DNA of 64,000 bases from Pseudomonadota bacterium (GTDB lineage Bacteria > Desulfobacterota > DSM-4660 > Desulfatiglandales > Desulfatiglandaceae): positions 11,380-75,379 of the forward strand of contig JAZDES010000221.1 of assembly GCA_043808585.1 (NCBI GenBank), written 5' to 3'. This document shows, one piece after another, positions 23,014-47,641 of the stretch. Positions within the stretch are counted from its first letter, which is position 1; each line of letters begins with the position of its first letter. The position numbers were made by a program, and so were the translations under genes. The notes under the pieces were generated by a model. It did not search any database and had not been told where the DNA came from. It saw nothing but the letters and a program-made list of their open reading frames with translations.

Positions 23014-23031
23014 TTTACTCCTCCAGCCCTA

Positions 23032-27389: not shown

Positions 27390-27679
27390 CTTTTTGCACG
27401 ACCTGGTCCTGGTCTGATTCAGCTCCGCATTCTTGAACCTTCCCTCATCGCCGTTCGGAGCCCGTTTATCCATAAAGTCCGCGACCCCAGTTCGTTGCCC
27501 TCTATTTTTGCTCCTGCACGACCTCATCGACGGCAATTCACCTACTTCGCGATCCTTTTTCCGTTTACAGGCAGCGGCCTCTTTTTATATACTAGCCTCA
27601 TCAGAAAGGATTGACTCGAATAACCGGCCCTTCTAGCCTTATGAAAGATTGATGTCTCTACTTTATTCTGGATATCGAG

Positions 27680-31122: not shown

Positions 31123-32382
31123 TTAGGGATAGATCCCCCGGAGGGCGTGGGCCTTTGCCACCCTCCCCACACCCAGGACATAGGCCGCTGAGCGCATGGA
31201 GATCTTCTTCTCACTGGCAATGGCAACCACTTCATCAAAACTCCGATGAAGAATATTTTCGAGACGTTCAGATATCTCTGCTTCACTCCACAACAGCTCC
31301 TGTAAATTCTGAAGCCATTCAAAATAGGATACAACGACTCCTCCGGCATTGGCCAAAATGTCGGGAAGTACCGTAATTCCTTTATCGTACAAGACCTGGT
31401 CTGCCTCCAGAGTGGTCGGCCCATTGGCCCCCTCCACAATGAGCTTCGCCCTGATACGGTCTGCGTTCTCTGCTGTAATCACGTTTTCCAAGGCCGCTGG
31501 GACCAAGATATCGCAGTCCAGTTCCAGTATCTCTTCGTTTGTTACTGATTCGCACCCTTTAATCCGTTCTGGCAGAAAAGCGTCGTGTTGCTTCTTACAA
31601 TCCAAGGCCCCCTCCAAGTTAAGGCCTTCCTTCCTGTAAACACCCCCCCTTGAGTCGCTGATGGCGATGACTTTGGCCCCAGCCTTATCAAAATACCGGG
31701 CGGCAATGCCTCCAACATTTCCCGCACCCTGAATAACAACGCGTGCCCCCTCCATGGAGAGCCCCAGATACTGGCAGGCCTTATGAGTGTTAATCACCAC
31801 GCCTTTCCCGGTCGCCTCAAAGCGGCCCAAAGAGCCACCCAGCTCGATTGGTTTCCCGGTCACCACACCCGTGACGGTATATCCTTTCATAATCGAATAG
31901 GTGTCCATGATCCAGGCCATGACCTGGGGATTGGTGTAGACGTCTGGGGCAGGGATATCCACGTCCGGCCCTATAAATAAAGATATCTCCCAGGCAAAGC
32001 GCCTTGTCATGCCCTCGATCTCACGCTCGCTCATTTCCTTGGGGTTGCACTGAACCCCGCCCTTGGCCCCCCCGAAAGGAATGTTGACCACAGCGGTCTT
32101 CCAGGTCATCCACATGGCCAGGGCCCTGATTTCATCTAGATTTACATCCGGGTGATATCTCATCCCCCCCTTGAATGGGCCTCTGGTATCATTGTGCTGT
32201 ACGCGGTATCCAGTAAAGATCTTTAATGATCCGTCGTCCATTTTTACTGGAAAATGTACGATTAACTCTCGGCGGGTACTCTTTATCGTCTCGAGTATAC
32301 CCTCATCCAGCTCCAGATATTTACTAGCAATATCCACCTGTTTCCTTGCCATCTGAAAAGGGTTGATTTTCGGTGCGACCAT
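31123..32382 (-). CDS. gdhA: glutamate dehydrogenase (Glu/Leu/Phe/Val dehydrogenase family)
   Basis: FKGGMRYHPDVNLDEIRALAMWMTWKTAVVNIPFGGAKGGV and the Rossmann GAGNVG motif are present. Confidence 0.9.
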   Translation of the reverse strand: MVAPKINPFQMARKQVDIASKYLELDEGILETIKSTRRELIVHFPVKMDDGSLKIFTGYRVQHNDTRGPFKGGMRYHPDVNLDEIRALAMWMTWKTAVVNIPFGGAKGGVQCNPKEMSEREIEGMTRRFAWEISLFIGPDVDIPAPDVYTNPQVMAWIMDTYSIMKGYTVTGVVTGKPIELGGSLGRFEATGKGVVINTHKACQYLGLSMEGARVVIQGAGNVGGIAARYFDKAGAKVIAISDSRGGVYRKEGLNLEGALDCKKQHDAFLPERIKGCESVTNEEILELDCDILVPAALENVITAENADRIRAKLIVEGANGPTTLEADQVLYDKGITVLPDILANAGGVVVSYFEWLQNLQELLWSEAEISERLENILHRSFDEVVAIASEKKISMRSAAYVLGVGRVAKAHALRGIYP

Positions 32383-32799
32383 GGCTACCCTCCATTTAAA
32401 ATAGAGACGCCCAGTGCCTTTTAGCGCAAAGATCTCTGGGTGTCTACCCGCTTAATATGGCCAAAACCTCGATAAAATGAACCCTTATGCCAGAATAGCA
32501 CCAGGGGCTTAGGGTCCTTAGGATAGCTGAAGAAGCTTCGCATTACAATAGGACTTCTGTTTTCAAGGGGGCTTCGGGCGTCATAATTACGAAGCCGCTG
32601 ATCGTATTATCAGTTTGCGCATGTCTAACTGACCTGGAAATTCCCGGTGTCCTACCCGCATATGCGTTGGGATTTCAATTGGATTGAAAAGGCCATTCTT
32701 TTCCTGTAGAATGACCCTGAAAATAGACGAGTTAGTAGTGTCTGTGAATTGTGCTGGAAGAGGGGGAATCCCGGGAAATCTGATAGGCTCCGGATTGAT

Positions 32800-33510
32800 A
32801 TGGAAAGAATTACCCAAGAGACTTATGACAAATATATAAAGGCACTTACGGACATCAGTCGGGCTATTACTTCCGAGCAGTACTTGGAGGATATACTCAA
32901 GCTGATCGTAATGGTCACGGCCAAGGTGACGGGTGTGGAGATCTGCTCGCTATGGTTGATCGATGACTCAACAGATCCCAGAGTGATCCGTTTGAAGGCG
33001 ACCCAGGCCATAGATCCAGACTATGTAAAGGACCGTTCCCTGCGGATGGAGGAGGGGGTTGTAGGCTATGTGGCTACCCATAATGAGCCTCTCATAGTCA
33101 GAGATGTCTTGAAGGAGCCCCGGTTCAAAGAAAAGGAAATGGCAAAAAAATTGGGGCTGGTATCCATGCTGGGTATCCCTTTACAGGTAAAGGATAAGGG
33201 GGTCATTGGGGTACTCAATTGCTTTACTTCAGAACCCCATGAGTTCTCTGTTACCGAGATAAACCTTGTTACTGCTGTTGCCAATCAGGCTGCTGTCGCA
33301 ATCCTAAATACAGAGCTTATGGTCAAGACCCAGGTCATCCAGGAGGAACTGGAGACCCGGAAGCTTGTTGAGCGGGCCAAGGAAGTTCTTATGCGCCGCC
33401 GCAACATGACCGGTGAACAGGCCTACCGCTGGTTGCAAAAGCGCAGCATGGATTCCCGGAAATCCATGCGTCATGTGGCCGAAGCCGTTCTTATCTCTGA
33501 CGAGATCTGA
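32800..33510 (+). CDS. GAF + ANTAR RNA-binding antitermination regulator
   Basis: A GAF-like N-terminus (LEDILKLIVMVTAKVTGVEICSLWL...) precedes a C-terminal ANTAR helix bundle (ELETRKLVERAKEVLMRRRNMTGEQAYRWLQKRSMDSRKSMRHVAEAVL). The start is moved to the ATG at 32800. Confidence 0.85.
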   Translation: MERITQETYDKYIKALTDISRAITSEQYLEDILKLIVMVTAKVTGVEICSLWLIDDSTDPRVIRLKATQAIDPDYVKDRSLRMEEGVVGYVATHNEPLIVRDVLKEPRFKEKEMAKKLGLVSMLGIPLQVKDKGVIGVLNCFTSEPHEFSVTEINLVTAVANQAAVAILNTELMVKTQVIQEELETRKLVERAKEVLMRRRNMTGEQAYRWLQKRSMDSRKSMRHVAEAVLISDEI

Positions 33511-33656: not shown

Positions 33657-33712
33657 GGCTCTCCACAATGATGTGTGGAGCCTCGGAACCATAAGGGACA
33701 AAGGCGTCTTTT
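33657..33712 (+). promoter_or_regulatory. candidate ANTAR dual-hairpin target in leader RNA
   Basis: P1 is ggctctccaca-AUGAUG-tgtggagcc (33657-33682). P2 is agggac-AAAGGC-gtcttt (33694-33711). The P2 hexaloop has A at position 1 and G at position 4, and its 3' arm overlaps the 5' arm of the terminator. The P1 loop matches only the A1 rule. Confidence 0.4.
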
Positions 33713-33740
33713 CCCGTAATCGGGAAGGCGCCTTTTTTTA
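33700..33740 (+). terminator. intrinsic terminator in the leader of the glutamate-synthase-like gene
   Basis: The stem aaaggcgtcttttcccg-taat-cgggaaggcgcc is followed by ttttttt. It lies 50 nt upstream of the ATG at 33789 and directly downstream of the ANTAR gene. Confidence 0.65.
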
Positions 33741-33788: not shown

Positions 33789-35354
33789 ATGTCATTTAGC
33801 AAGCCGAACCGTAGTGCTGCAACCGTAACCACAACCCGTGTGGAACCGGCGCCTATCTCGGGGATCTGCGTCACCTGTCTGGATGGGTGTGAAGGCCCTT
33901 GTGAGATAGGACGCTCCGCCCTCAAGGGACGGGAGATGCTTTACCCCCAGCCTTACGGAAAAATTACCGCAGGGGCTGACAAGGATTATCCGGTAGATCT
34001 TTCCCACTTTAACATTCTGGGGACCTGTGTAGGGGCCGTAGGCGTGGATGCCGATCCGGATCTGGCAACATTTCCCGCGGTTGACTGCACAACCACCGCG
34101 GGTGCGGACGGAGGCATCAAACTCGATTTTCCCGTTGTGACCGGTGCCCTGGGATCGACGGACGTTGCTAGGATTAACTGGGAAGACATGGCGGCTGGAG
34201 CGGCCATATCTGGCATCATCCTTGTAGCCGGAGAGAACATCTGCGGAATGGACCCCAAGGCGGAGTTCCAGAACGGCAAGATAGCCAAATCACCCGAAAT
34301 GGAACGTCGTGTGAATATCTATAAGAGGTGGTATGACGGCAAGGGTGGGCTCGTTGTCCAGGCCAATGTGGAAGACATCAAACTCGGCGTCCCTGAATAC
34401 GTCATTGAGAAGCTGGGTGTGGAGATCTTCGAATTAAAGTGGGGGCAGGGTGCGAAGGATATCGGCGGTGAGGTCAAGCTGCCTACACTGGAGCGGGCCC
34501 TACAATTGAAAGAACGGGGGTATATCGTACTCCCCGATCCGACAAGCCCTGCCGCGCAAGAGGCCTTCAAGTCTGGTGGGATCACCGAGTTTGAAAGACA
34601 CTCAAGGCTAGGGATGGTGGACGAAGAGGCATTTCACAAGATGGTAGAGTATCTTCGGAGCGTAGGCGCCAAGTACGTCACCCTCAAAACCGGCGCCTAT
34701 CGGCCGGCAGACCTCGCTCGCGCCATTAAGTATTCTTCCGATGCAAAAATCGACCTTTTGACCATTGACGGCGCCGGTGGCGGAACAGGCATGAGCCCAT
34801 GGCGGATGATGAATGAATGGGGAATTCCTACCGTCGAGTTGGAGTGTCTGACACATCAGATGTGTGAACGCCTGAGAGCCAAGGGCGCCTATATCCCCCC
34901 GATCGCCGTTGGCGGGGGATTATCACTCGAAGACCACATGTTTAAGGTCCTCGCATTGGGTGCGCCTTATGTCAAGGCGGTTCTATTCGGACGGGCCGTT
35001 ATGACCGCAGCCATGGTGGGCAAGACCCATGGAAAAATGATGGCGGAAAAGTTGGAACTGGAAGGAGAGGATGCCGATGTCGGATATTTGAAACTATTTT
35101 CCGTTGGCACGCAGCTCAAGGAGCGGTTTGGTAAAGACTTTGCGGAGCTCCCGGCCGGCGCCATCGGCATGTATTCCTATCTCGATCGCTTGAAGCAGGG
35201 GCTACAGCAACTGATGGCCGGTGAGAGGAAATTCGCACTGAAATATATAGAGAGAAATGACCTTGTGGCCCTGACCAGGGAGGCGGCCGAAATATCGGGA
35301 ATTCCGTATGTAATGGATGCCGACAAGGAAGAGATTGATAAAATATTGGGATAG
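33789..35354 (+). CDS. FMN-binding glutamate-synthase-family protein (GltB domain-2-like) with N-terminal Cys cluster
   Basis: CVTCLDGCEGPCEIG lies at the N-terminus. Blocks typical of the Glu_synthase FMN barrel are present (LKWGQGAKDIGGEVK, TIDGAGGGTGMSPW, VGGGL). Confidence 0.75.
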   Translation: MSFSKPNRSAATVTTTRVEPAPISGICVTCLDGCEGPCEIGRSALKGREMLYPQPYGKITAGADKDYPVDLSHFNILGTCVGAVGVDADPDLATFPAVDCTTTAGADGGIKLDFPVVTGALGSTDVARINWEDMAAGAAISGIILVAGENICGMDPKAEFQNGKIAKSPEMERRVNIYKRWYDGKGGLVVQANVEDIKLGVPEYVIEKLGVEIFELKWGQGAKDIGGEVKLPTLERALQLKERGYIVLPDPTSPAAQEAFKSGGITEFERHSRLGMVDEEAFHKMVEYLRSVGAKYVTLKTGAYRPADLARAIKYSSDAKIDLLTIDGAGGGTGMSPWRMMNEWGIPTVELECLTHQMCERLRAKGAYIPPIAVGGGLSLEDHMFKVLALGAPYVKAVLFGRAVMTAAMVGKTHGKMMAEKLELEGEDADVGYLKLFSVGTQLKERFGKDFAELPAGAIGMYSYLDRLKQGLQQLMAGERKFALKYIERNDLVALTREAAEISGIPYVMDADKEEIDKILG

Positions 35355-35436
35355 TGTGGAACCAGAGGATTGCGATCAATAAATTAATATAGAATGTTGC
35401 CGAGCAAGGCGTAGCGGAAATGAAAGGAGAAAAAAG

Positions 35437-35643
35437 ATGCTCAACGTGATTTGCCCCCACAACTGCAAGGACTGTTACGCGATGAGGGTATGTGCGGTTC
35501 GCGCTATAAAAGACCAGCAGGGCTCCATCTATGTGGAGACCGATGATTGTATCGGCTGCGGCTGCTGTAAAACCTCGTGCATTACCTTTGGGTACAAGGC
35601 CCTGGAGCAGAAGACTCCTCAATGGCTAATGGGAGCTGCATAG
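35437..35643 (+). CDS. small 2x[4Fe-4S] ferredoxin
   Basis: CPHNCKDCYAMRVC and CIGCGCCKTSC motifs in 68 aa. Confidence 0.7.
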   Translation: MLNVICPHNCKDCYAMRVCAVRAIKDQQGSIYVETDDCIGCGCCKTSCITFGYKALEQKTPQWLMGAA

Positions 35644-35692
35644 GCAATTGAATATTGATTAATTCGTAAAAACACATTAACAGCCACTTTTT

Positions 35693-35765
35693 GTCATTCC
35701 CGCGAAAGCGGGAATCCAGTGGTTTTGTGTTGTTATGGACTGCCGCCTGCGCGGGAGTGAGGAGA
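35693..35765. repeat. REP-like palindrome pair
   Basis: gtcattcccgcgaaagcgggaatccag (35693-35719) is followed by the degenerate second unit ctgccgcctgcgcgggagtga. Confidence 0.8.
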
Positions 35766-35793
35766 AAGGGGGGTTTTTACGGAAGCATCAATA

Positions 35794-35821
35794 TTGATTA
35801 TTGAAGATTGATGGTTGTTGG
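35794..35821. repeat. four tandem heptamers TTGnnnn
   Basis: The run reads ttgatta ttgaaga ttgatgg ttgttgg and lies next to the REP-like unit. The ORF-track start at 35808 reads through it. Confidence 0.65.
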
Positions 35822-35885
35822 ATTAGCGATTTTCTTAGATCGTCAATCTCCAATCGAAAATCGTCAAGAAACCTGGAGTCAAAAC

Positions 35886-37697
35886 ATGAACGGCTGGACC
35901 GGTCGATGCCTCAGGGTAAACCTGACGAATGGTCGTTTTCAACATGAAGATATCCCCTATGAGCTTATGGAAGGGTATCTTGGAGGGCGCGGCCTTGGCG
36001 CCAAGGTCCTTTCAGACGAAATCGATCCTTCAGTTGACCCTCTTTCCCCTGACAATAAAGTGATATTTGTTTCAGGTCCGCTGGTGGGCACTGGCGCGAT
36101 AACCGGTGCCTCCTGCAATGTCCTGACCAAGAGTGCCCTGTCCGGCACCATCGCATGCGCCAAGGTCAGGGGGCACTTTGGGGCCGAACTAAAGTTTTCA
36201 GGATTCGACATGGTGATCCTGGAAGGTCGGTCAGAATCACCCGTGATCCTTACCATTATGGATAACAAGGTAGATATCCTGTCTGCCGTTGAGTACTGGG
36301 GGCGGAGTACCTCGGAGACAGAGGATCTCTTCATGAGGAAACTGACCGACAAGTGGGCGGCTCGAGAAACCTATCTCCTGACCATCGGTCCGGCAGGAGA
36401 AAGACTGGTGCCCCTCGCGAATATCATTAATGATGGTTTTCTGTCTGTTGGGGGTGCTGGCATTGGCGCCGTTCTGGGCTCTAAGAACCTCAAGGCCATT
36501 GCCGTCAAGGGGAGCCGGTCGGTAACCGTTGCTGATGGAAACCGTTTTGTTCAGGTAATCACCACCCTCATTAACAAACTGAACAGCGCCGCTTTGACCT
36601 CTCAGTCGATGTCATCCTGGGGGTCTGCGTTTTTTGTCGGTCTTTGTTATCAGAAGGGGATATTGCCTTTCAAGAACTTCCAAAGCTCCTCCTTTGGAGA
36701 ATCCAAGAGTGTGGGGACCCAGTCCCTTTCAAATGCCTTTGCCTTGAGAAGCAGGGGATGCTTTGCATGTCCGATCGCATGCATAAAGAAGACCGATGTG
36801 AATAACCCGCTCTTTAGGGGAAAGGGCATGGCTCCAACCTATCTGGCAGTCGGAGCTTTGGGTCTTAATTGCGGCATCACTGACCTGACGACGATCGGAA
36901 TGGCAAATATGATTTGCGCAGAGATGGGCCTGGATCCCATGGCAACGGGGGGGACAGTTGCCGCTGCCATGGAACTCGGTGAGAAAGACGTTATATCAAA
37001 GGACGATCTCAAACTTGATCTGAGGTTCGGTCACGGGGAAGACCTCCTTCAGGCCTTGACGCTGATGGCGACCAAGAAGGGGCATGCCAAACGGTTGGGG
37101 CAGGGGGGTGATGCCCTGGTTAAGGAATATGGACAGCCCAAATTATTTATGGGTGTCAAAGGTCTGCCCATGGCGCCGTTTGATCCGAGGTGCATTCAGG
37201 GGATGGGTCTTCACTTCGCCACCTCCAATTACGGACCCCACCATCTTTATGCCTACACCTTTATTGATGAGGTGCTGAACGTTCACGAAAACCTGAATCC
37301 GTGGACCACCGAAGGCAAACCGGAACTGGTCAAGCGGTACCAGGACATAACAGCGGTGATGGATTCGTTGGGGCTATGCAACTGGCCATTGATGGGGCTT
37401 AAGTTCAACAATTTTGTTCCAATGGTAAACAGCTGCCTGGGCACCAGTTACAAGGCAGAGGATCTGCTCAAGATTGGGGAGCGGATATGGGATCAAGAGC
37501 GGATGTTCAATATCAGGGCGGGTTTTGATCGGAGCCATGACACCCTTCCCCAGAGGTTCTTCGAGCCCATGCCCGATGGGCCGGCCAGGGGACAGGTCAG
37601 CAGGGTTCCCGAGATGCTCGGGGAATACTACAGACTTCGTGATTGGGACGAAGAAGGCCAACCCCGGTCCCTAACCTTAAGTGAATTGGAGGAATAG
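35886..37697 (+). CDS. aor: aldehyde:ferredoxin oxidoreductase family (tungstopterin) enzyme; BamB-like position in cluster
   Basis: MNGWTGRCLRVNLTNGRFQHEDIP...GGRGLGAKVL is the classic AOR N-terminus. The CFACPIAC [4Fe-4S] ligand region is present. The start is set at the ATG at 35886. Confidence 0.88.
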   Translation: MNGWTGRCLRVNLTNGRFQHEDIPYELMEGYLGGRGLGAKVLSDEIDPSVDPLSPDNKVIFVSGPLVGTGAITGASCNVLTKSALSGTIACAKVRGHFGAELKFSGFDMVILEGRSESPVILTIMDNKVDILSAVEYWGRSTSETEDLFMRKLTDKWAARETYLLTIGPAGERLVPLANIINDGFLSVGGAGIGAVLGSKNLKAIAVKGSRSVTVADGNRFVQVITTLINKLNSAALTSQSMSSWGSAFFVGLCYQKGILPFKNFQSSSFGESKSVGTQSLSNAFALRSRGCFACPIACIKKTDVNNPLFRGKGMAPTYLAVGALGLNCGITDLTTIGMANMICAEMGLDPMATGGTVAAAMELGEKDVISKDDLKLDLRFGHGEDLLQALTLMATKKGHAKRLGQGGDALVKEYGQPKLFMGVKGLPMAPFDPRCIQGMGLHFATSNYGPHHLYAYTFIDEVLNVHENLNPWTTEGKPELVKRYQDITAVMDSLGLCNWPLMGLKFNNFVPMVNSCLGTSYKAEDLLKIGERIWDQERMFNIRAGFDRSHDTLPQRFFEPMPDGPARGQVSRVPEMLGEYYRLRDWDEEGQPRSLTLSELEE

Positions 37698-37699
37698 GG

Positions 37700-38074
37700 A
37701 TGGCGAGAATAAAGATCGATCACACCAAATGCACCGGTTGTAGACATTGCGAGACGGCCTGTTCTCTCAACCATGTGGCGGGTGTCTGCAATCCGAGACG
37801 AGCGCGAATCAGGGTCTTCAGAGAAGGGCATACCTATTTTCCGACCATTGCCGGGCCTTTTGTAGATGCTGCGTGCACCTCCAAGAACGACTTGGTTGTC
37901 GGTGACCAGAGATACAACATGTGCCTGGTCTGCCGGGCATCATGTCCGGAGAAACCCTTTTTTATTGAAGCTGAAACCGGTTTTCCCCTGAAATGTGATT
38001 TCTGTGGGATCCCACCAAGCCCCTCCTGTGTCAGGTGGTGCAATAGCGGTGCCCTGGAATTAATAGAAGATTAG
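37700..38074 (+). CDS. 4Fe-4S ferredoxin-domain protein (AOR partner; BamC-like position)
   Basis: CTGCRHCETAC, CLVCRASCP and CDFCG...CVRWC motifs are present. It starts 3 nt after the AOR stop. Confidence 0.75.
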   Translation: MARIKIDHTKCTGCRHCETACSLNHVAGVCNPRRARIRVFREGHTYFPTIAGPFVDAACTSKNDLVVGDQRYNMCLVCRASCPEKPFFIEAETGFPLKCDFCGIPPSPSCVRWCNSGALELIED

Positions 38075-38176
38075 CAAAAAGCCTTCATATGCGAAACTGG
38101 AGACTCTGAACACCGAGAATGCCTTCTTGTCCGTCGGCTTCACGTTCGGAGTTTTCAGTCTCGGAGCCATATTCGT

Positions 38177-41100
38177 ATGAATCGGATCAAGAGCAAAGGG
38201 GATCTCATTGGAGCCGTGTTGGTTGTCGGTGGAGGGATTGCCGGTATACAGGCCTCGCTCGACCTGGCTGAATTGGGCTACTATGTCTATCTGTTAGATA
38301 AGCATACCTCTATAGGAGGTGTGATGGCGCAGTTGGACAAGACGTTTCCGACCAATGATTGCGCCATCTGAATCCTGGCACCCAAACTGGTGGAGGCCGG
38401 TCGGTCTCCAAACATTGAGATCATTACCAAAGCGGAATTATTGTTGATTGAGGGTGAAGTCGGCAATTTCACTGCAAGGGTGCGCCGTCTGCCCCGCTAT
38501 GTGGACGAAGACCTGTGCACAGCCTGCGGCACGTGCACCGGTTACTGCCCGATGCCTGTCGAGGACGTTTACAATGAAGGGCTTTCCTACACCAAGGCCG
38601 TACACATTGATTACCAGCAGGCCATTCCCGCCGCCTTTCATATAGATGAGAAGGCCTGTCTATTCCTGACAAAAAAAGAATGCAAACAATGCGAGAGGGT
38701 CTGCCTTGCCAAGGCCATCGACCTTAATCAACAACCCCGGGATATGGATCTTCATGTGGGTGCAGTAATCCTGTCTCCTGGGTTTGGCCATATCCGAAAA
38801 GATGTACTGGCAAAATATGGTTATGGGAGATTCCCTGATGTGGTAACCGGTTTGGAATTTGAGCGTTTGACATCGGCCTCCGGACCCTTCATGGGCGAGA
38901 TTATCAGACCATCAGATAGGGAACACCCTGAAAGGATCGCCTTTCTCCAATGCATCGGCAGCAGAGACCTGTCAAGCGGCAATGGGTATTGTTCGTCGGT
39001 CTGCTGTATGTATGCAATCAAAGAGGCCTTAGTGGCTAAGGACCACAACCCAAATCTGGATATAGTCATTTTCCATATGGACATGCGTACCCATGGGAAG
39101 GAATTCGATAATGCCAGGATCCGAGCCAAAGAGAAGGGCATCCGCTTTGTGAGAAGCCGATTTGGAAGTATTCGGCCCAAGGGTAAAGGCCTTGAACTGA
39201 AATACGTGAAAGAGGAGGGGGAGCATTGCAGAGAGACGTTTGACATGGTGGTGCTTCCTGAAGGGCTTGAATCCCCTGAAGACGCGCGTCCTTTATCAAA
39301 GGCCGCTGGTATCGATCTGAACCATTATGATTTTTGCAGGACCCAGGGTTTTTCCCCGCTGGAAACTTCCCGCCCCGGTGTCTTTGTAGCGGGTGCCTTT
39401 CAGGGCCCCAAGGATGTGCCGGAAAGCGTTACCGATGCGAGCGGTGCAGCCGCCCTTGCCGCCGAGGCCCTCTCTCAGGCGCGAAACACGAAAGTCGAAG
39501 TGAAGGTCTATCCAGATGAAATGGAGATAAGGGAATCGCCTCGTATCGGCGTGTTTGTCTGCTCTTGCGGCAGCAATATCGGCGGCGTTGTTGATGTCCC
39601 GGACGTGGCAGATTATGCTGCAACTCTGGAAAATGTGGTCTTTACAGATACGAATCTTTATAGCTGTGCCCAGAACACTCAGGAACTCATTACAACGAAG
39701 ATTAAAGAGAACCGGCTGAATCGGGTGGTGGTGGCGGCGTGTACGCCACGCACCCATGAGCCCCTGTTTCAGGAAACCCTGAAGAATGCCGGCCTGAACA
39801 GGTCCCTGTTTGAGATGGCCAATATCAGGGATCATTGCTCATGGGTCCATTCCCATCTCCCTGAAGAAGCAACGGAAAAGGCCAAAGACCAGGTCAGAAT
39901 GGCTGTGGCTAAGGCCCGCTTGTTACGTCCTTTACCGGAACAGAGGATTGCAGTCACTCCAAAGGCGCTGGTCATTGGAGGGGGTCTTTCAGGGATTACG
40001 TCTGCCTTGAGCATAGCTCGACAAGGATTCGAGTGCTTTTTGGTGGAAAGATCATCAGAGCTGGGAGGCAATCTCAGGGATGTCAAGTTCATGCTCAGCG
40101 GTGATGATCCCCGTCTATTTCTGAAGGGTCTCATAGAGGAAGTCATGTCCCATGAACTGGTGCAGGTTTATACCAACGCCCATATAAAGGAAATCTCAGG
40201 CTACGTTGGCAACTATGCCACCACGCTTCAAACCAAGGAAGGGACCAAGACCTTACAGCACGGAGTTATTGTGGTGGCCACCGGGGGGAGGCCGTATGAG
40301 CCCAAACAATATCTGTATGGTAAATCGAGTCACGTGGTTACGCAACTCGAACTGGAGGAGATGTTGGCGGGCTCTAATCGTATCAAGACGACAAACAGTA
40401 TTGTCATGATTCAGTGTGTAGGCTCCAGAGGAGAAGACCTGTCCTACTGCAGCAAAGTGTGTTGCGGTCAGGCCGTTAAGAATGCCATTCAGATTATGGA
40501 CTGCAACCCGTCGGTCGACATAACCGTTCTCTTCAGAGACATGCGGACTTACGGGTTCATGGAGGACGCCTACAACCTGGCCCGTGAAAAAGGGGTCAGT
40601 TTCATCCATTTTGATGGAAATTATCCTCCGGATGTGACTGAACAAGACGGGAGACTCCGTGTAGAATTTTGGGACAAGCTTTTGGAAGAGAAGATGACCC
40701 TTGAGCCTGATCTCCTTGTCTTGGGTGTGGGCATCGTACCTGCAGAAACAGAGGGGTTGGCAAGGATTCTCAAGACCCCGCTCACCGAGAGTGGGTTCTT
40801 TTTGGAGGCCCATGCGAAGCTTCGGCCCGTGGAGTTTTCAGTAGACGGGGTTTACCTCTGCGGTCTTGCTCATTCCCCCAGGCCTATCTCCGAGTCCGTT
40901 GCCCAAGCCAAGGCCGCTGCCGGTAAGGCATGTATCCATTTAGCCAGGGGATATATTGCAGTAGAGCCGATCGTTTCTTCGGTGGATCAGGAGATCTGTA
41001 TCGGATGCGGAATATGTGAAAGCCTCTGCCCTTACAATGCCATTCAGATGACAAGGGTTGGAAATAAGAAAAAGGCGGACACGGTCTCGGCATCATGTAA

Positions 41101-41209
41101 GGGATGCGGGATTTGCGCATCCCATTGCCCTGCACTGGCCATATACATGGGAGGTTTCAGCAGCGAACAGATTATGGCCCAGATAAGGGCCTATGGAGAA
41201 CGCGGCTAG
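38177..41209 (+). CDS. hdrA: HdrA-like FAD/FeS protein, double-length (about 1010 aa), selenocysteine at TGA 38369-38371
   Basis: ORF-track pieces 38177..38371 and 38390..41209 are in the same frame. The joined sequence reads [31 protein letters not shown], where HdrA proteins have ...DC(S/A)(M/I)CI(L/M)(A/S)PK. There are two GxGxxG FAD folds ([10 protein letters not shown] and [10 protein letters not shown]) and four ferredoxin-type CxxCxxCxxxCP motifs. Confidence 0.85.
38392..38409 (+). promoter_or_regulatory. candidate bacterial SECIS hairpin for hdrA-like UGA
   Basis: ggaggcc-GGUC-ggtctcc forms a 7-bp stem (one G-U pair) with a GGUC apical loop. The loop lies about 30 nt after the UGA. 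GGUC is also the loop sequence of the E. coli fdhF SECIS. Confidence 0.5.
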
Positions 41210-41230
41210 TTATTGGAGGTTTTTCTTTAA

Positions 41231-41848
41231 ATGACAGGTAAGAAATCATTTGAGCCAAGAATCCTGGGTTTCCTTTGTAACTGGTGCTGTTATGCGGCAG
41301 CGGATTCTGCGGGGATTTCCCGTTTTCAGTATCCACCCAATATAAGGGTCATCAGGATTATGTGTACCGGTAGAATGGATCCCCTGTTCATTATTGAAGC
41401 CTTCTGCTCAGGTGCTGACGGTGTCTTTGTGGGCGGCTGACAACTCGGGGAATGCCATTACCAGGTTGGTAATTATGACGCCATCTTCACCGCTCATTTC
41501 GCCCGGAGGATTCTTAAAGAGGCAGGCGTCCATCCAAACAGGGTTGCCCTTGACTGGGCCTCTGCCGCTGAGGCCCCGCTTTATGTGAAATTGATAACGG
41601 AATTCACCAAGCACATAAGAGAATTGGGCCTGCTCGGAGAAACAGAGGGAATGCCCTTAGAGAAACTCAAATTGAGGTTATCCGCGGCCAGGTCTGTTGC
41701 AGCGAATCTTAAATTGCGTACGCGGTTTGCCAGGGTCGCCGTGGAACTGAGAAAGGCAGATGATTATTCCTCTCAGGTGATAGAAGCCAAGATGTCAGAA
41801 AAGTTGGACGAGGCCATTTCTCGCGAAATGGAAAACTGTCACCGTTAA
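41231..41848 (+). CDS. mvhD: MvhD-like (methyl-viologen-reducing hydrogenase delta subunit family) protein, selenocysteine at TGA 41438-41440
   Basis: Pieces 41231..41440 and 41585..41848 lie in one frame with an open frame between them. The joined sequence reads [25 protein letters not shown]...WASAAEAP, against the family consensus G(C)HxGDCHYxxGN. Confidence 0.8.
41457..41473 (+). promoter_or_regulatory. candidate SECIS hairpin for mvhD-like UGA
   Basis: attacc-aGGUu-ggtaat. The loop lies about 26 nt downstream of the UGA. Confidence 0.45.
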
Positions 41849-42187
41849 AAGACCAGTTGACAGGATAACTGGATAGACATGATTCAAATGTATCTTCTCA
41901 ATAAATCGGGGCAACTGCTTTCTAAGACCCCTTTTCTGGATTGCCGCCACTCATTGAGCTGTTACATTCAAATCCAGCTCACCCTGTTAAATTTCCCGAA
42001 GGGAGCCCTATTTAACAGGGTAAATCAATACTATTTATGGCAACCCCTGGCCAGACCTGTTTATCCCAGAGGTTAGGCGTGAAATCAAGGACTTAACATA
42101 GCGAATCAGCAAGAAAAAAACTGTCATGTCTATCCTGTTTATCTTGTCCAAAAACGGCTGTAAGCGGATAAGGAGTGGCCTTTCACA

Positions 42188-43954
42188 TTGACAAGCACTC
42201 ATTTCCAACCGAGATTCAAATCCGAAGTCAGTGCCATACCGGGCGGAGAGCTGGTCAGTCGGTGCTTCGGCTGCGGCAGCTGTGCAGGTGTATGTCCGGT
42301 CAGTGAATCAGGAACCGGCTTTGATCCGAGAAAAATCCTTCATATGATTCAAATGGGCCTCAAGGATAGGCTCCTGAGCTCCCCCACGATTTGGCACTGC
42401 ACCCATTGTGATTCGTGTGCGGTTGTCTGTCCCCAGGATATCCGGTTTAGCTCTGTTGTGGATGTGCTTCGAGAAATGGTCATGGGTGAGGAATATCCTG
42501 GCGGAAAGAACGTGGAGAGGTGGGGGACCGCCCCTTGCAAGGCAGCCTGTCCCGCACACATCAGTATCCCCGGTTTTGTGGGCGCTGTTGCAGAGGGGAG
42601 GTATGAAGAAGGGTTGAAGCTCATCAAAGAAGAGATGCCCTTCCCGGCCATATGCGGACGTATATGTCCCCATCCCTGTGAGCTGCAGTGCAATAGGGGA
42701 GGGATCGATAAACCAATCGCCATAGAGTTCTTGAAACGTTTTCTGGCGGATCTGGATATCTCAAAGGAGACTTCCTATGTCCCGAAGAAGAAGCCGGGCA
42801 AGAAAGAGAGAGTTGCCGTCATAGGGGCAGGACCAGCCGGGCTTACGGCAGCCTATTATTTAGCTATCGAAGGCTATCCTGTCACCGTCTTTGAGAAACT
42901 TCCTGCGGCCGGGGGTATGATGGTCCTGGGAATTCCTGAGTTCCGCTTACCTCGAAATATCCTCCAGGCTGAAATTGAGGTGATTAAGAAGTTAGGGGTA
43001 GATATCAGACTCAACGTCGAGGTCGGAAAGGATATCAGTTTTATGGAACTGCAAAGGGAATTCAATGCCATTTTTGTCGGCATTGGATGTCAGCGTGCCA
43101 TAAAGCTCGGTATCCCTAATGAAGATGGGTTGGCCGGCGTTTTCGACGGCCTCACGTTCTTGAGAGACATAAATTTGAAGGACATGCCCGTTTGCGAGGG
43201 CAGAGTGGTTGTTATTGGCGGCGGAAATACTGCGGTTGATTGCGCCCGCGTGGCAAAGCGGTCAGGACCTCAAAGTGTCGCGATCCTTTACAGGAGAACG
43301 CGAGAGGAAATGCCGGCAAGCCCATGGGAACTTGACGAAACCCTGGAGGAGGGAATTGATATCCAGTTCCTGACAGCACCTGTTAAAATCCTGGGCGAGA
43401 ACGGGAAGGTTTCCGGACTTGAGTGCATTCGCATGAGGTTGGGAGAATCCGATAACTCGGGTCGGCGCAGACCTGTACCGATTGAGGGGTCCGAATTCAT
43501 GGTGAAAGCGGAAACTGTGATAATAGCCATCGGTCAGGCACCGGACTTGACCTGTCTGCCCCATGAGTTGGAAATGAATGTTGCCGGAAACGGGCGCTTA
43601 ACCGCCGATCCTCACACTGGGAGGACGCAAATTCCAGGAATCTTCTCAGGGGGGGATGCGGTTTCGGGCCCAGGGACCGTTGTGGAAGCGGTCGCCTTTG
43701 GAAAGGAGGCGGCAAGATCAATAGATCGCTTCTTGAAGGGTGAAGACATCGACGCCAGGCAGAGGCGTGACTGGAAAGGGATTGCGTTTATATCTGAGGA
43801 AGTTGAGTTTCAAGAAAGGGAATCAATGCCCCGCCTCTCCCTGGCAGAACGGAGGAGGACCTTTAAAGAGATCGATCTGGGATTCAGTGAGGAACAGGCC
43901 AGATGTGAGGCTGAACGGTGTTTGAGAACATGCGGGGTCCAATTAAAACCTTAG
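42188..43954 (+). CDS. fusion of HdrC-like 2x[4Fe-4S] domain with GltD/NfnB-like NAD(P)H-dependent FAD oxidoreductase
   Basis: The N-terminus has CFGCGSCAGVCP and CTHCDSCAVVCP. The GltD-type region has CPAH...CGRICPHPCE..C, two Rossmann motifs (VIGAGPAGLTAA and VIGGGNTAVDCA) and GIFSGGDA. The TTG start is uncertain. Confidence 0.8.
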   Translation: MTSTHFQPRFKSEVSAIPGGELVSRCFGCGSCAGVCPVSESGTGFDPRKILHMIQMGLKDRLLSSPTIWHCTHCDSCAVVCPQDIRFSSVVDVLREMVMGEEYPGGKNVERWGTAPCKAACPAHISIPGFVGAVAEGRYEEGLKLIKEEMPFPAICGRICPHPCELQCNRGGIDKPIAIEFLKRFLADLDISKETSYVPKKKPGKKERVAVIGAGPAGLTAAYYLAIEGYPVTVFEKLPAAGGMMVLGIPEFRLPRNILQAEIEVIKKLGVDIRLNVEVGKDISFMELQREFNAIFVGIGCQRAIKLGIPNEDGLAGVFDGLTFLRDINLKDMPVCEGRVVVIGGGNTAVDCARVAKRSGPQSVAILYRRTREEMPASPWELDETLEEGIDIQFLTAPVKILGENGKVSGLECIRMRLGESDNSGRRRPVPIEGSEFMVKAETVIIAIGQAPDLTCLPHELEMNVAGNGRLTADPHTGRTQIPGIFSGGDAVSGPGTVVEAVAFGKEAARSIDRFLKGEDIDARQRRDWKGIAFISEEVEFQERESMPRLSLAERRRTFKEIDLGFSEEQARCEAERCLRTCGVQLKP

Positions 43955-44113
43955 TCACTTCAAGCTGATCCAGCGTACCTTCCAGATACCAAGAAAACAA
44001 ACCACGTCGACTGTGGGTAGTCACTTGACTTGCCCGGAAAGACATGCCATTGATAGGTCGGTTGTCAGGAATGGAGCAGAGCCCGCGGGTACTAGTGAGG
44101 GGGGGTTGAATAA

Positions 44114-45592
44114 ATGGATGGAATTGTTGGTGTATTTGGTATGGATGACGCTGAATTGGTGTGCAAGACATTTCTGGCGACAGGGGCCTGTCAGCACAGG
44201 GGAAAGGCCAGCACCGGGATTGCCATTGGAAACAGCAAAGGCATCTATGTGCACAAGGGTCTGGGAAGGATAGCCGAGGTAATTGACCATGACATAGTCA
44301 GGGTTTTTCAGGATCTGGCGCCCGTGGCAGCAATCGGAAACATCGGTTATACCAAGAGGAGAATAGCCGAAAAGGTCAACGCCGAGCCAATTGAAATCCA
44401 TCCGAGGAATAGCTCCAAATACAAGGTTGTCTTAACGATGGACGGATACCTGATCAAAGAGGATGACCTGAGAGATGAGCTGGAGCCGGACTACAGCATC
44501 CAGACCGATAATAAGACAGAGATCGTAGGTGCCTTGCTGCACAAATACATAACCCAGGAAGGTGTATCCTTTGCTGCCGGGGAGAAGCTGGTTTACAGGC
44601 TGCACGGCAGGGCGACCTTTGCCCTCACAGCGCTGGTTCATGACGGCGGAGAGATTTACCTAATCGCCTTGAATGATGACAGGGCCTTTGAGCCCTTCTG
44701 TTATGCTATGATTGACGGTACATTCGTTGCCAGCTCTGAATCCTGTTCTCACAGGAGGCTAAATGGCGTTACCGAAAAGGAATATGACGGCTCGGAGATG
44801 ACCGTATGCTCGTCTGGGGGGATCGAGACAAGAAGACTGAGAGAGGAATCCCTGATGCCTGATATTTTTCAAGGTGTCTATTTCGGGAATGTGGGGTCCA
44901 TCTTCCGAGGAAAGGAGATATTTCAGCTGAGAAGAGAGCTGGGACTAGAGTTGGTGAAACAGTACGGGGATTCCAAGGCCGATATTGTTATTCCCAATCC
45001 GGAATCAGGGTGGGGTGTTACAGTGGGGATTGCTGAGGGCCTGGGAAAAAATCTGTTCCCCGCACTCATAAAACTCCCGCAGGCCATCAGGACATTTCAG
45101 GAGGGTGAGCAGACGACCCGATCTCAGGAAGTGGGACTCAAGTTCGGGGGAATCGATTCTCTGCTCAAGGGAAAGAATGTCGCAATGGGGGACGACAGCA
45201 TCGTAAGAGGGAGTGTGAGTGAGGGCGGTTCTGTCTGGGTGGTATATAACGCCGGTGCAAAATATATCGAATTTTGGATATCTTACGGCCCGATGTTTTT
45301 CCCTTCCTTTAAAGAATGGCACCGAGGCGTAGAGTGCGTCCAAGAACTTGCAGTCCAGCGAGCCTTCCCAGACGGTAACCCCTATGACAAGACACTGGAT
45401 GAGATCAACAAGGCGGTCGCCAAGTTAGTTGGCGTCGATGAGGTGAGGTACAATTCCCTGGAGAGGATCAGAAAAGTCGCCGGCAACGGATCCTTCCAGG
45501 CACTCGATTCCACCTATCCCATAGCCCGAGAATTTTGGCCTGACTGGTTAAAAAGTGAATATGAAAGATTCGAACGGTATCGTGTGGGCTAG
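44114..45592 (+). CDS. amidophosphoribosyltransferase (PurF)-like protein lacking the N-terminal Cys nucleophile
   Basis: It has the layout of a class-II (Ntn) glutamine amidotransferase followed by a PRTase fold (ADIVIPNPESG, VAMGDDSIVRGS). The N-terminus reads MDGIVGVFG where PurF has MCGI(V/F)G. An in-frame TAA lies directly upstream of the ATG. Confidence 0.7.
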   Translation: MDGIVGVFGMDDAELVCKTFLATGACQHRGKASTGIAIGNSKGIYVHKGLGRIAEVIDHDIVRVFQDLAPVAAIGNIGYTKRRIAEKVNAEPIEIHPRNSSKYKVVLTMDGYLIKEDDLRDELEPDYSIQTDNKTEIVGALLHKYITQEGVSFAAGEKLVYRLHGRATFALTALVHDGGEIYLIALNDDRAFEPFCYAMIDGTFVASSESCSHRRLNGVTEKEYDGSEMTVCSSGGIETRRLREESLMPDIFQGVYFGNVGSIFRGKEIFQLRRELGLELVKQYGDSKADIVIPNPESGWGVTVGIAEGLGKNLFPALIKLPQAIRTFQEGEQTTRSQEVGLKFGGIDSLLKGKNVAMGDDSIVRGSVSEGGSVWVVYNAGAKYIEFWISYGPMFFPSFKEWHRGVECVQELAVQRAFPDGNPYDKTLDEINKAVAKLVGVDEVRYNSLERIRKVAGNGSFQALDSTYPIAREFWPDWLKSEYERFERYRVG

Positions 45593-46008
45593 ACCGCCAT
45601 CCCCTCTGCCTCTTTTTCGCGGACCCTGACTTTTTTATCGAGGCGGCTCGGTTTCGGAAATGGGACGGCTCTCTTCTGAGCGTAGTCCAGTTTCTTCTTT
45701 CCGCTCAAGAGGGCAAGCAGGAGGCCCTCCTCCCGGCAGCGACCCTGATGACCACACGCCTTTCTGGTCTTTTCAAAGTAGTTATAGGGCACAAGACAGC
45801 CGAATGACCTCACGTCAACACTATCATCCAGGCCTGTCTCCCCGTGGTAATTGACCTTCTTTTTCCCCCTCAGTATTTCCTGGCCCAGGCCAAGATCCGG
45901 ACAGTTTTCAAAACGGGGGCATGCATGACACTGCTCAAAGAATTTCAATGGGGTCCCACATTCGAATTCAAGGGCGTGGATCTTTTTCGACTTGGTGCTA
46001 TCCATCAC
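45589..46008 (-). CDS. hypothetical Cys-rich protein
   Basis: It is a 139-aa ORF with CGT...CHACPRFENCP...C...C..GRC spacing and no family I recognise. Its end overlaps the PurF-like stop by 4 nt (convergent genes). Confidence 0.4.
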   Translation of the reverse strand: MMDSTKSKKIHALEFECGTPLKFFEQCHACPRFENCPDLGLGQEILRGKKKVNYHGETGLDDSVDVRSFGCLVPYNYFEKTRKACGHQGRCREEGLLLALLSGKKKLDYAQKRAVPFPKPSRLDKKVRVREKEAEGMAV

Positions 46009-46342: not shown

Positions 46343-47641
46343 CTATTTGATATTGAGCCAGAGCAGTCTGGCCACGCCTGGGCCGGGATTTTTCCACTGG
46401 GAAGGCATTTCAGAGGTCAGATAGATCACATCTCCAGAGCGCACCGTGAATACGGCATTCTGCAGTTTCATTTGCAGCCTCCCAGACATGAGATAGCCAA
46501 CCTCTTCACCCTTGTGGACAAAAAAATGTGAGGGCAAGGTCTGCTCCGGGTGGATTTCGATCAGGTAGGGTTCAGCCTTGGGCTCGAAATCCACAGGGGT
46601 CAAGAGGCGGCCGCTGATACTGCCGGGGGGAAGGTCGGGGAATTTTATGTCAACCGCCTCAGGGCCGGGAAAAATGACCCGGTTCTTTATCTCAGCGGAC
46701 TCCTGAAAAAAGGACGTAATCTGAACGGAGAGCACTTCCGCCATTTTGAGCAATGCTGGCAGAGAGGGGTATATCAGGTTGCTTTCTACCTGGGAGATGG
46801 TACTGGGAGTTACTCCCACAAGCTTGGCCAGTTCAGTCTGCGATAGACCCCGCTTGATGCGAAGCTCTTTCAATCGCATTCCCAGATCGACCCGGCCGGT
46901 GACCCGTTTTTCAATTTCAAATGTGATATTAAGATCTTTGCTCCAATAATTGTAAGGCCGGTTCAACGTATCCAGATTACGCTTTTCAGCCTTGAGAATG
47001 GTCATGGAGGTCTTGCCTCTTCTCACGGAGAGATCGATGGCCACCTGGGCGATTTGATTGATCTGAGCCCTGAGACGGGGAGAATGGGCCCGTTTCTCCA
47101 TAATCCAGTAGGCGATAGTATTCAGTTCGTATAGCCTGGGGCAAGAGTGGGAGTAGAAATTTAGGATATGGTCTTCACCGCCCCAAAGTTCTTGCATACC
47201 GGTCAGGCTTTCAAACACAAACCGGACATCCCCTTCCATGGTGGCGTGGACGCCGTAAAAGGCGTCCATTACCTTATCCACCTTTTGGGGTTCATCTACA
47301 CGGATGATCCTGCATGCCGGTTCTGATTCCTTTTCTTTATAGAATCTGAGAAAGACATCCGAGCCCGACCCCTTCCCGAAGGTGAAACAGTCGAGGATCG
47401 TCAGGAATGGGTTGTCTGCCAGTGGCCCGAGTTTTTCCAAGAGGTTTCGCGGGGATCGGTCAAAGGATACATAAATGAGCGGTCTTTTTTGCGCTTGAGA
47501 TGCCTGGATGAAGTTGAGGCCGAAGACAGCGGCTAGACTGCCGGCATCATCGTGCCATACCACATTGTCACCGATATAAAGCCCCCCCAAGAGACGATCC
47601 AGCTGGTAGACTCCTGAGGCCACTCTAAGTCTTTCTACCAT
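46343..47641 (-). CDS. XRE-family HTH + cupin regulator with N-terminal KaiC/RecA-like domain lacking a P-loop
   Basis: The HTH is LKELRIKRGLSQTELAKLVGVTPSTISQVES. The C-terminal cupin reads HKGEEVGYLMSGRLQM...GDVIYL. The N-terminal 230 aa follow a KaiC-like pattern (GVYQLDRLLGGLYIGDNVVW HDDAGSLA...VFESL), with HDDAGSLA where GPPGTGKT is expected. Confidence 0.7.
   Translation of the reverse strand: MVERLRVASGVYQLDRLLGGLYIGDNVVWHDDAGSLAAVFGLNFIQASQAQKRPLIYVSFDRSPRNLLEKLGPLADNPFLTILDCFTFGKGSGSDVFLRFYKEKESEPACRIIRVDEPQKVDKVMDAFYGVHATMEGDVRFVFESLTGMQELWGGEDHILNFYSHSCPRLYELNTIAYWIMEKRAHSPRLRAQINQIAQVAIDLSVRRGKTSMTILKAEKRNLDTLNRPYNYWSKDLNITFEIEKRVTGRVDLGMRLKELRIKRGLSQTELAKLVGVTPSTISQVESNLIYPSLPALLKMAEVLSVQITSFFQESAEIKNRVIFPGPEAVDIKFPDLPPGSISGRLLTPVDFEPKAEPYLIEIHPEQTLPSHFFVHKGEEVGYLMSGRLQMKLQNAVFTVRSGDVIYLTSEMPSQWKNPGPGVARLLWLNIK

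Follow-up and report, generated by a model that had tools for sequence, protein, structure and literature searches.

A seven-gene locus for a putative tungsten- and selenium-containing Hdr-type complex with a GltB-like partner in a Desulfatiglandaceae genome

Introduction

To our knowledge, only two systems have been described in which a tungsten enzyme takes part in flavin-based electron bifurcation, the Bfu-type WorABCSL and the one-megadalton benzoyl-CoA reductase. Here we analyze a gene cluster around a homologue of aldehyde ferredoxin oxidoreductase (AOR) in a 64,000-nucleotide stretch of DNA from a Desulfatiglandaceae assembly (GCA_043808585.1, contig JAZDES010000221.1, positions 11,380 to 75,379). 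This whole stretch is referred to as the window, and coordinates are given in its own numbering.

In class II benzoyl-CoA reductase (BCRII), BamE is a fused HdrA dimer whose bifurcating flavin adenine dinucleotide (FAD) lies in the N-terminal thioredoxin reductase (TrxR) domain beside the Cys59-Cys62 pair and Lys280; BamC and BamB receive their electrons from an inserted ferredoxin domain, and the C-terminal ferredoxin domain is the input (10.64898/2026.04.10.717634). According to the same work, the HdrBC-like BamD accepts the high-potential electron, and BamF contains selenocysteine (Sec) and is >100 aa longer than earlier-described MvhD adaptors. All tungsten enzymes with a solved structure share the active-site residues Tyr310, Glu311, His444, and Tyr423 (AmWorL numbering; PMC12318220). 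The 2026 classification of WOR enzymes holds no class with the subunit set of the window, and HdrA is mentioned there for benzoyl-CoA reductase (BCR) only (PMC13328260). Related gene neighborhoods appear in two genome papers: an Aor5/ferredoxin/Fe-S locus with hdrA is drawn for Desulfobacterium autotrophicum HRM2 (PMC2702500, Fig. 4), and in Desulfococcus multivorans, cells grown on n-butanol, 1-propanol or butanoate were the only ones in which HdrA1 was detected, whose gene adjoins mvhD1 and a gene for a pyridine nucleotide-disulfide oxidoreductase (PMC5109826). The combination of genes presented here was not described in the full-text literature searched.

Results

Gene content of the locus

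The genes under study are the following.

33789-35354, + strand: GltB-like flavin mononucleotide (FMN) TIM-barrel protein (GltBFMN), 521 aa, first gene of the proposed operon; PF01645 50 bits, AlphaFold2 (AF2) model
35437-35643, + strand: Fd68, a 68-aa ferredoxin with two [4Fe-4S]-type motifs; codon-wise conservation, ribosome-binding site
35886-37697, + strand: AOR homologue, AOR-clade tungstopterin subunit, 603 aa; PF02730 220 bits, PF01314 362 bits
37700-38074, + strand: BamC-like ferredoxin, 124 aa, three [4Fe-4S] clusters; 104 bits to 4z3w_E
38177-41209, + strand: HdrA-like protein (HdrA2x), fused dimer, 1010 aa with TGA read as Sec; NCBIfam HdrA2 977 bits
41231-41848, + strand: MvhD/FlpD-type [2Fe-2S] adaptor, 205 aa, Sec70; PF02662 161 bits
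42188-43954, + strand: HdrC/GltD fusion, 588 aa; HdrC-type dicluster domain 23-101, GltD/NfnB-type module 114-583

We consider it somewhat more probable than its opposite (roughly 0.55) that the locus forms the body of a seven-gene operon, with the GltB-like FMN enzyme (start at 33789) as its first member and the fusion gene (end at 43954) as its last, and that the product is a tungsten/selenium/flavin/iron-sulfur complex following the BamB-C-E-F plan of BCRII. The last five genes, at 35886-43954, had been singled out in an initial annotation as a Bam-like bifurcation module, and all five lie on the forward strand as placed there. That annotation also named an MvhD-like selenoprotein, a double-length HdrA-like selenoprotein and a terminal HdrC/GltD fusion, all of which are present, with one in-frame TGA as Sec in each of the first two. 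The unit is larger than the five genes first noted: GltBFMN and Fd68 are conserved partners at the operon head. No terminator-like sites were predicted from GltBFMN to the end of the fusion gene. The separate annotations “aldehyde ferredoxin oxidoreductase” and “glutamate synthase domain 2” probably hide one complex.

Domain searches of the cluster proteins detected neither an HdrB/CCG-domain protein (none in 33789-45592) nor a NuoEFG-type gene, nor the Bfu-type genes WorA, WorB, and WorC. As the initial annotation had observed, BamD and BamGHI are thus missing and the HdrC-GltD fusion stands in their place.

BamC-, BamE- and BamF-like subunits

The 124-aa ferredoxin matches BamC (4z3w_E) with an E-value of 7.6e-29 and 104 bits, compared with 44 bits to AorA (8c0z_C) and 37 bits to WorS (9mqx_E); the WOR5 small subunit falls within 37-44 bits. 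Twelve cysteines, not sixteen, align with those of BamC and account for the three [4Fe-4S] clusters, in line with its earlier designation as a BamC counterpart. HdrA2x gave 977 bits to NCBIfam HdrA2 over three stretches and 659 bits to Methanothermobacter wolfeii HdrA (5odc_A). The protein contains two GxGxxG FAD motifs and two TrxR-like halves. The N-terminal half holds C62-x2-U65, K282 (in CCMYAIK) and an inserted 8-Cys 2x[4Fe-4S] domain (114-176), with the single in-frame TGA at 38369-38371 in the motif NDCAIU. The second TrxR-like half is 32% identical to the first over the core and has no CxxC pair, and a C-terminal 8-Cys 2x[4Fe-4S] domain follows at 941-984. Judged by the published description of BamE, the layout of HdrA2x agrees feature for feature, so that the proposed parallel between the two proteins holds.

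In the MvhD-like protein, the TGA at 41438-41440 (residue 70) lies in the motif GGUQLGECHY. Both TGA codons are kept, within the same motifs, in every orthologous locus, and tRNA-Sec is present in the source genome on contig C66. The suggested role of the MvhD-like selenoprotein as the BamF counterpart is thereby borne out. The protein carries a C-terminal tail of ~70 aa, and with its 205 aa it seems shorter than BamF, judging by the published description of the latter.

HdrA-type genes are numerous in the source genome (3.4 Mb): >10 further HdrA/MvhD loci were noted (contigs C2, C32, C73, C113, C116, C122, C133, C139, C153, C192, and C205), in several of which a GltD module is inserted into HdrA (HdrL-like). 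On C122, a second double-length HdrA (42%) adjoins an AOR paralogue and a BamC-like ferredoxin.

The tungsten subunit

In phmmer searches, the tungsten subunit scored 500 bits against Pyrococcus furiosus AOR (1aor_A), 461 bits against AmWOR1 WorL and 452 bits against AorB. The match to BamB (4z3w_A) reached 136 bits and was restricted to residues 5-385, the N-terminal two thirds of the protein. The [4Fe-4S] ligands are kept, C292, C295, C299, and C498 corresponding to C288, C291, C295, and C494 of P. furiosus AOR. By the phmmer alignments, the four conserved residues Tyr310, Glu311, His444, and Tyr423 map to Y319, L320, H453, and F432. Thus, two of the four are lost (Glu to Leu320, Tyr to Phe432), with Y319 and H453 retained, and the motif NRGGCH reads NYGPHH. 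The homologue is therefore nearer to AOR than to BamB by score, against its initial placement as the BamB counterpart, and its active site is non-canonical. Its closeness to AOR amounts to one half of the evidence that the initial annotation had named as refuting its proposal. Judged by its sequence, the tungsten subunit is neither BamB nor a conventional AOR, and with the altered active site it may act on something other than an ordinary aldehyde.

The motifs M-A-P-T-[YF]-[LMW]-A and NYGPHH are common to all syntenic orthologues, the Glu being replaced by Leu, Met or Trp and the Tyr by Phe. Uncultured Desulfobacterales are the source of the entire orthologue group, which counts at least 120 clusters (72-93% identity); the nearest representatives at 50% clustering are 54%, then 44-45% identical. 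In a FastTree phylogeny of 174 sequences, the group is nested in a supported clade (26 tips, support 0.99), within which both active-site motifs have degenerated in differing ways. Canonical AORs fall outside this clade. The source genome holds 18 AFOR_C matches, and most of its other AOR paralogues, like the AOR of a related locus (L015, below), keep G-P-E-Y-E. Two divergent AOR-family paralogues of the same genome (C198:3678-5603 and C204:11938-13965; 35% mutual identity) have neither the EYE nor the RGGCH motif. With best matches of 199-223 bits and BamB matches of 158-209 bits, they are near no solved tungsten enzyme.

The HdrC/GltD fusion

The GltD part of the fusion is nearest to the NADPH modules of Bfu-type Nfn/Stn enzymes (9bov_A, 445 bits; also 8oh5_C) and scores 357 bits against 4ylf_B and 321 bits against 5jca_L, both NfnB. 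It is a module of the FAD/NAD(P)H type with two further [4Fe-4S] clusters, and it stays below the equivalog cut-off (TIGR01316, 386 bits vs. a cut-off of 472). The N-terminal 100 residues match HdrC (8rvv_C) with 64 bits. By homology, HdrC would dock on the high-potential side of HdrA, like BamD in BCRII; the most likely role of the fusion is therefore to exchange the high-potential electron with NADP(H), in either direction.

A further argument comes from family f22, where the AOR is 70% identical and the operon of locus L075 ends with a separate 194-aa HdrC and a 656-aa NuoE/NuoF-type flavoprotein, with no GltD. As two unrelated NAD(P)H modules occupy one position, this position can be read as the pyridine-nucleotide port, which supports the earlier suggestion that NAD(P)H enters the complex differently than in the Bam system. 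The NuoE/F module makes this sister lineage even more Bam-like. In L075 (5107-8054, genome G061), the NuoE-NuoF fusion carries two extra 4Fe-4S motifs, and the ~390 bp between HdrC and this fusion may conceal another small gene.

Conservation of the unit in other genomes

We searched species-representative genomes with the fusion protein and mapped the window proteins onto the matching loci (designated L with a number). The same gene order was found in at least 10 other species-level genomes, with 61-93% identity of the fusion protein, and owing to this recurrence it is not due to chance. The order AOR-Fd-HdrA2x-MvhD-HdrC/GltD is complete in L014, L018, L019 (Eth-SRB1), L020, L021, L022, and L030 and partial in L016 and L017. 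These loci come from Desulfobacteraceae metagenome-assembled genomes, with a fusion protein 61-72% identical to that of the window. For the 93%-identical relative L013, the contig ends upstream of hdrA. Five Desulfobacteraceae loci reach far enough to show the operon head, and in each of them the GltBFMN-Fd68 pair precedes the AOR gene, as it does in all six f22 genomes.

Parts of the unit also occur in other combinations. A distant group (L023-L031, 50% identity) has HdrA2x-MvhD-...-HdrC/GltD without an AOR gene. L015 carries the Hdr/GltD trio and, 18 bp behind it, another AOR, 42% identical and with a canonical active site, together with a BamC-like ferredoxin (54%). On at least two occasions, therefore, the trio and an AOR-ferredoxin pair have come together, and the resulting arrangements differ. 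Conversely, L069 (a complete 2.5-Mb genome), L070, and L071 hold a minimal cassette of GltBFMN, Fd68, AOR (41%), and BamC-like ferredoxin (60%) without any Hdr gene. The spacers of the L069 cassette, from coding end to next start, are 3-15 bp long.

The GltB-like enzyme and Fd68

Fd68 was found by aligning the 530-bp “intergenic” region 5′ of the AOR gene across five loci. The small reading frame has a ribosome-binding site, variation at third codon positions, one CxxCxxCxxxC and one Cx3Cx2Cx5C motif, and weak HycB/ferredoxin matches. By tblastn, it directly follows GltBFMN in 19 of 29 loci of other genomes. GltBFMN is 69-93% identical across families and has an invariant N-terminal Cys4 motif (C27, C30, C34, and C38). 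Its AF2 model (pLDDT 73) is an FMN-type TIM barrel. Foldseek and VIA-align comparisons returned generic FMN TIM barrels (alpha-hydroxy-acid oxidases, IDI-2, IMPDH, OYE, and GltS), so that the Z-score of 15.7 for GltS is not discriminating. In the phylum, the protein occurs in 162 of 301 sampled genomes at 45-84% identity. In one of the other loci (L072), glutamine synthetase and a GXGXG protein share an operon with GltBFMN-Fd68, and a GAF-sigma54 activator precedes it. The cluster of the window contains no GXGXG gene.

Two neighboring genes were considered as further members and rejected. The only amidotransferase-like gene, a PurF-like one (44114-45592, + strand) considered as the missing amidotransferase, has no counterpart behind the fusion gene in any related locus and is a lineage-specific insertion outside the conserved unit. 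Its product starts with MDGIVG, the Ntn nucleophile Cys1 being replaced by Asp, and its match to TIGR01134 (136 bits) is far under the cut-off. The glutamate dehydrogenase gene at 31123-32382 shows no synteny elsewhere.

Regulators, leader, and intergenic insertions

The following further features flank or interrupt the genes of the unit.

32797-33510, + strand: GAF-ANTAR regulator of the antitermination type; PF01590 77 bits, PF03861 74 bits
33594-33745, + strand: structured 5′ leader with a strong intrinsic terminator, candidate ANTAR target; stem 33700-33735, then T-run
41838-42183, no strand: insertion of ~330 bp in the spacer between mvhD and the fusion gene; absent in L013
45589-47641, - strand: 139-aa Cys-rich protein and 432-aa HTH(XRE)-cupin regulator, convergent

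The GAF-ANTAR regulator is upstream and syntenic in L014, L019, L021, and L022. The leader contains a 14-bp stem terminator (33700-33735) and has a fold z-score of -6.3; the terminator, together with a promoter-like TCTTGACA box, is conserved in five loci. A search of the leaders for riboswitches or known RNAs in Rfam gave sub-threshold matches only, on the ANTAR leader. The regulator and the leader terminator probably gate the operon, which is apparently nitrogen-regulated. In the light of this operon head, with the GltB-like enzyme and Fd68 under ANTAR control, the likely physiology shifts from aromatics towards nitrogen metabolism.

Downstream, the HTH-cupin regulator and the Cys-rich protein are syntenic in L014, L018-L022, and L030, and L016 has the regulator only. 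This regulator adjoins GltBFMN in other families too, in many lineages. The Cys-rich protein (45589-46008, - strand) has no Pfam matches. The N-terminal 250 residues of the regulator (46343-47641, - strand) match nothing and are followed by HTH_3 and a cupin domain.

Part of the ~330-bp insertion is made up of a ~60-bp repeat that recurs throughout the genome, on at least 15 contigs besides this one. The insertion also contains a perfect hairpin with 11-bp arms (41980-42021) and alters the last mvhD codons relative to L013. A second lineage-specific intergenic insertion in the operon was noted at 35650-35880.

Search for benzoyl-CoA reductase and aromatic metabolism

Within the 85.6%-complete assembly, no BamB orthologue was found. 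The window protein and three divergent AOR paralogues (C198, C122, and C204_11995) scored 136-222 bits against 4z3w_A, and the remaining full-length paralogues that align at the motif are mostly canonical EYE. Class I BCR was likewise not found in this assembly (best match 151 bits vs. a cut-off of 421). Oah/BamA, Had, and Dch-like genes are present on other, short contigs (C132 and C241); given these fragments and the completeness of 85.6%, a canonical bam cluster may be unassembled. Near the window locus itself there are no aromatic, CoA-ester, CoA ligase or ring-pathway genes. In our best reading, the locus does not encode a benzoyl-CoA reductase. The initial proposal of a Bam-like bifurcation module is thus supported in part: the ferredoxin, the double HdrA and the Sec-containing MvhD are borne out, and the BamB-like tungsten subunit and the link to aromatic ring reduction are not supported.

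Discussion

Proposed electron transfer

In our best reading, the product of the locus is an Hdr-type complex that bifurcates or confurcates electrons and connects nitrogen metabolism with a tungsten site, NADP(H), and ferredoxin. Such Hdr-type flavin-based bifurcation would involve three ports. The low-potential branch would lead from the inserted ferredoxin domain of HdrA2x over the BamC-like subunit to the tungsten site, and the high-potential branch from the HdrC clusters over the GltD clusters and the GltD-bound FAD to NADP(H). Ferredoxin, presumably Fd68, would dock through the C-terminal ferredoxin domain and MvhD; as the third partner, Fd68 would serve the GltB-like enzyme as well, and GltBFMN would be a ferredoxin-dependent consumer, probably an ammonia-assimilating one. 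Two directions can be envisaged. In confurcation, electrons from a very low-potential donor at the tungsten site and from NADPH would be joined to reduce ferredoxin for the GltB-like enzyme. In bifurcation, reduced ferredoxin would drive a reduction at < -500 mV at the tungsten site, with NADP+ accepting the downhill electron. Confurcation is slightly preferred, because the Hdr-less cassette is thermodynamically sensible only if the tungsten site donates electrons that end up at the FMN site, and because the whole operon appears nitrogen-gated.

In its most specific form, this proposal describes a nitrogen-regulated W/Se confurcating machine, in which electrons from the tungsten site and NADPH would pass through the mini-ferredoxin to a glutaminase-free, GltB-like ammonia assimilation, a new ATP-sparing route, and in which the tungsten subunit would belong to an unrecognised AOR clade without the canonical aldehyde-oxidising active site. 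We put this detailed version forward tentatively, as a possibility that is still rather doubtful in its entirety.

Several observations weigh against the proposed operon and its wiring. The subunit contacts rest on homology to Hdr and BCRII only. The preference for NADP over NAD comes from a YRR motif alone, which we take, from GltD/NfnB, to be a mark of NADP specificity. The loss of the catalytic Glu and Tyr is not accounted for by any aldehyde-based model and leaves room for non-aldehyde, BCR-style reductive chemistry. GltBFMN, in the 162 of 301 genomes that have it, mostly occurs without an AOR neighbor, so that the tungsten enzyme is dispensable for it. Moreover, the spacers between Fd68 and the AOR gene (243 bp) and between mvhD and the fusion gene (~340 bp, including the repeat-bearing insertion) are long in the window, and internal promoters or separate transcripts may exist. 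Finally, a more canonical, archaeal-type split glutamate synthase (GOGAT) is encoded on contig C64 next to glnD, and the GltB-like enzyme of the window would therefore represent a second, divergent type. The C64 locus (17568-27847, L076) comprises GlnD, an 877-aa GXGXG protein, a canonical GltB FMN-domain protein, a second Glu_synthase+Fer4 protein, MetF, and MetV, which places the split GOGAT directly beside methylene-tetrahydrofolate reductase genes.

Alternative explanations

The spacers just mentioned would also suit two or three independent adjacent units, namely an ANTAR-controlled ferredoxin-dependent GltB-like enzyme, a ferredoxin-linked AOR and an NADPH-linked Hdr module; GltBFMN-Fd68, the Hdr trio and AOR-Fd pairs are indeed each found alone in other genomes. 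Yet the combination recurs where the AOR orthologues are only ~70% identical and the NAD(P)H module has been exchanged, and the spacers shrink to a few bases in the L069 cassette and to 18 bp in L015. The long gaps of the window are lineage-specific repeat insertions, and terminator prediction finds none inside the cluster. We regard separate units as improbable. More weight, though still in the range of the unlikely, is given to an Hdr-type counterpart of the bifurcating WorABCSL, which would oxidise ordinary aldehydes and split the electrons between ferredoxin and NADP+, with the GltB-like gene as a mere neighbor. The top similarities of the tungsten subunit, to P. furiosus AOR, WorL, and AorB (500, 461, and 452 bits), agree with such an enzyme, as do the coupling of the same Hdr trio to an AOR with a canonical active site in L015 and the detection of D. 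multivorans HdrA1 only on n-butanol, 1-propanol or butanoate (PMC5109826). It is difficult to reconcile with the replacement of Glu311 and Tyr423 by Leu/Met/Trp and Phe in all orthologues, and with the presence of GltBFMN-Fd68 upstream of the AOR gene in all 12 orthologous loci that reach far enough.

The same replacements, hydrophobic residues in place of polar catalytic ones, would suit a BCR-like reductase. In this case, electrons from ferredoxin would be bifurcated to NADP+ and to a Birch-type or other reduction below ferredoxin potential, at the tungsten site, of an aromatic, heteroaromatic or otherwise inert, possibly nitrogen-containing substrate, whose C=N or C=C product the GltB-like FMN enzyme would then process. 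The BamC-like and BamE-like partners, the position of the protein in a clade with diversified active-site motifs, and the occurrence of Oah, Had, and a Dch-like gene in a genome whose tested paralogues include no recognisable BamB or class I BCR point in this direction; however, with ring-pathway contigs that are short fragments of an 85.6%-complete assembly, the true bam cluster may simply be unassembled. The match to BamB amounts to 136 bits only, no CoA ligase or ring-pathway genes are nearby, regulators and neighbors indicate nitrogen assimilation, and a niche substrate would not match the strong conservation and wide distribution of GltBFMN. We therefore rate a BCR-like reductase as the least probable of the explanations considered.

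Comparison with known systems

The loci of the cultured Desulfobacteraceae D. autotrophicum HRM2 (PMC2702500) and D. multivorans (hdrA1-mvhD1-Dmul_C02800, PMC5109826) resemble the window in their described gene neighborhood, with Sec-containing hdrA and mvhD beside AOR, ferredoxin or pyridine nucleotide-disulfide oxidoreductase genes. They were only drawn or listed in genome papers, without a proposed function or complex. With the methanogen complexes MvhAGD-HdrABC and FdhAB-MvhD-HdrABC (PDB 5ODC, 7BKB, and 8RVU) the window shares HdrA (659 bits to 5odc_A), the MvhD adaptor, the HdrC dicluster domain and Sec at the CxxC/U site of HdrA. Unlike these, it has no HdrB and hence no heterodisulfide site, its HdrA is duplicated and fused, HdrC is fused to GltD, and the electron partner is a tungsten enzyme instead of a hydrogenase or formate dehydrogenase.

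Like WorABCSL (AmWOR1/ElWOR1, “Class IV”, PDB 9MQX; PMC12318220, PMC13328260), the predicted complex would join AOR-clade tungsten and FeS subunits to a flavin-based bifurcation module serving ferredoxin and NAD(P). In contrast to WorABCSL, this module is of the Hdr type (HdrA-MvhD-HdrC) with GltD and not of the Bfu type (WorABC), the small subunit has three clusters, not four, and Glu311 and Tyr423 are replaced. The closest plan is that of class II BCR, represented by Bam[(BC)2DEFGHI]2 of Geobacter metallireducens (PDB 4Z3W = BamBC). Common to both are an AOR-family tungsten subunit with a three-cluster BamC-type ferredoxin, a fused-dimer HdrA whose N-terminal half has two paired cysteines around position 60 and a lysine around position 280, one inserted and one C-terminal ferredoxin domain, a Sec-containing MvhD-type adaptor and the gene order BamB-C-E-F. 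Yet the tungsten subunit of the window is far nearer to P. furiosus AOR than to BamB (500 vs. 136 bits), BamD (the HdrB/CCG part) and BamGHI are replaced by a port made of HdrC-GltD, or of HdrC and NuoE/F in the sister lineage, and a GltB-like FMN enzyme, a mini-ferredoxin, and nitrogen-type regulators are added where aromatic-pathway neighbors are lacking.

Beside the two described systems, the window would thus represent a third wiring, in which parts of the BamC/E/F type are combined with an AOR-clade subunit of altered active site and with either GltD or NuoEF as the port, and which gene order and regulators tie to nitrogen metabolism. Many uncultured marine sulfate reducers share this wiring, among them bacterial partners of archaea that oxidise alkanes. 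If true, the proposal may account for the way in which anaerobes short of energy meet the cost of ferredoxin-dependent ammonia assimilation; it would also define a tungsten-enzyme clade with probable non-aldehyde chemistry and extend the “modular recombination” principle recently proposed for BCRII.

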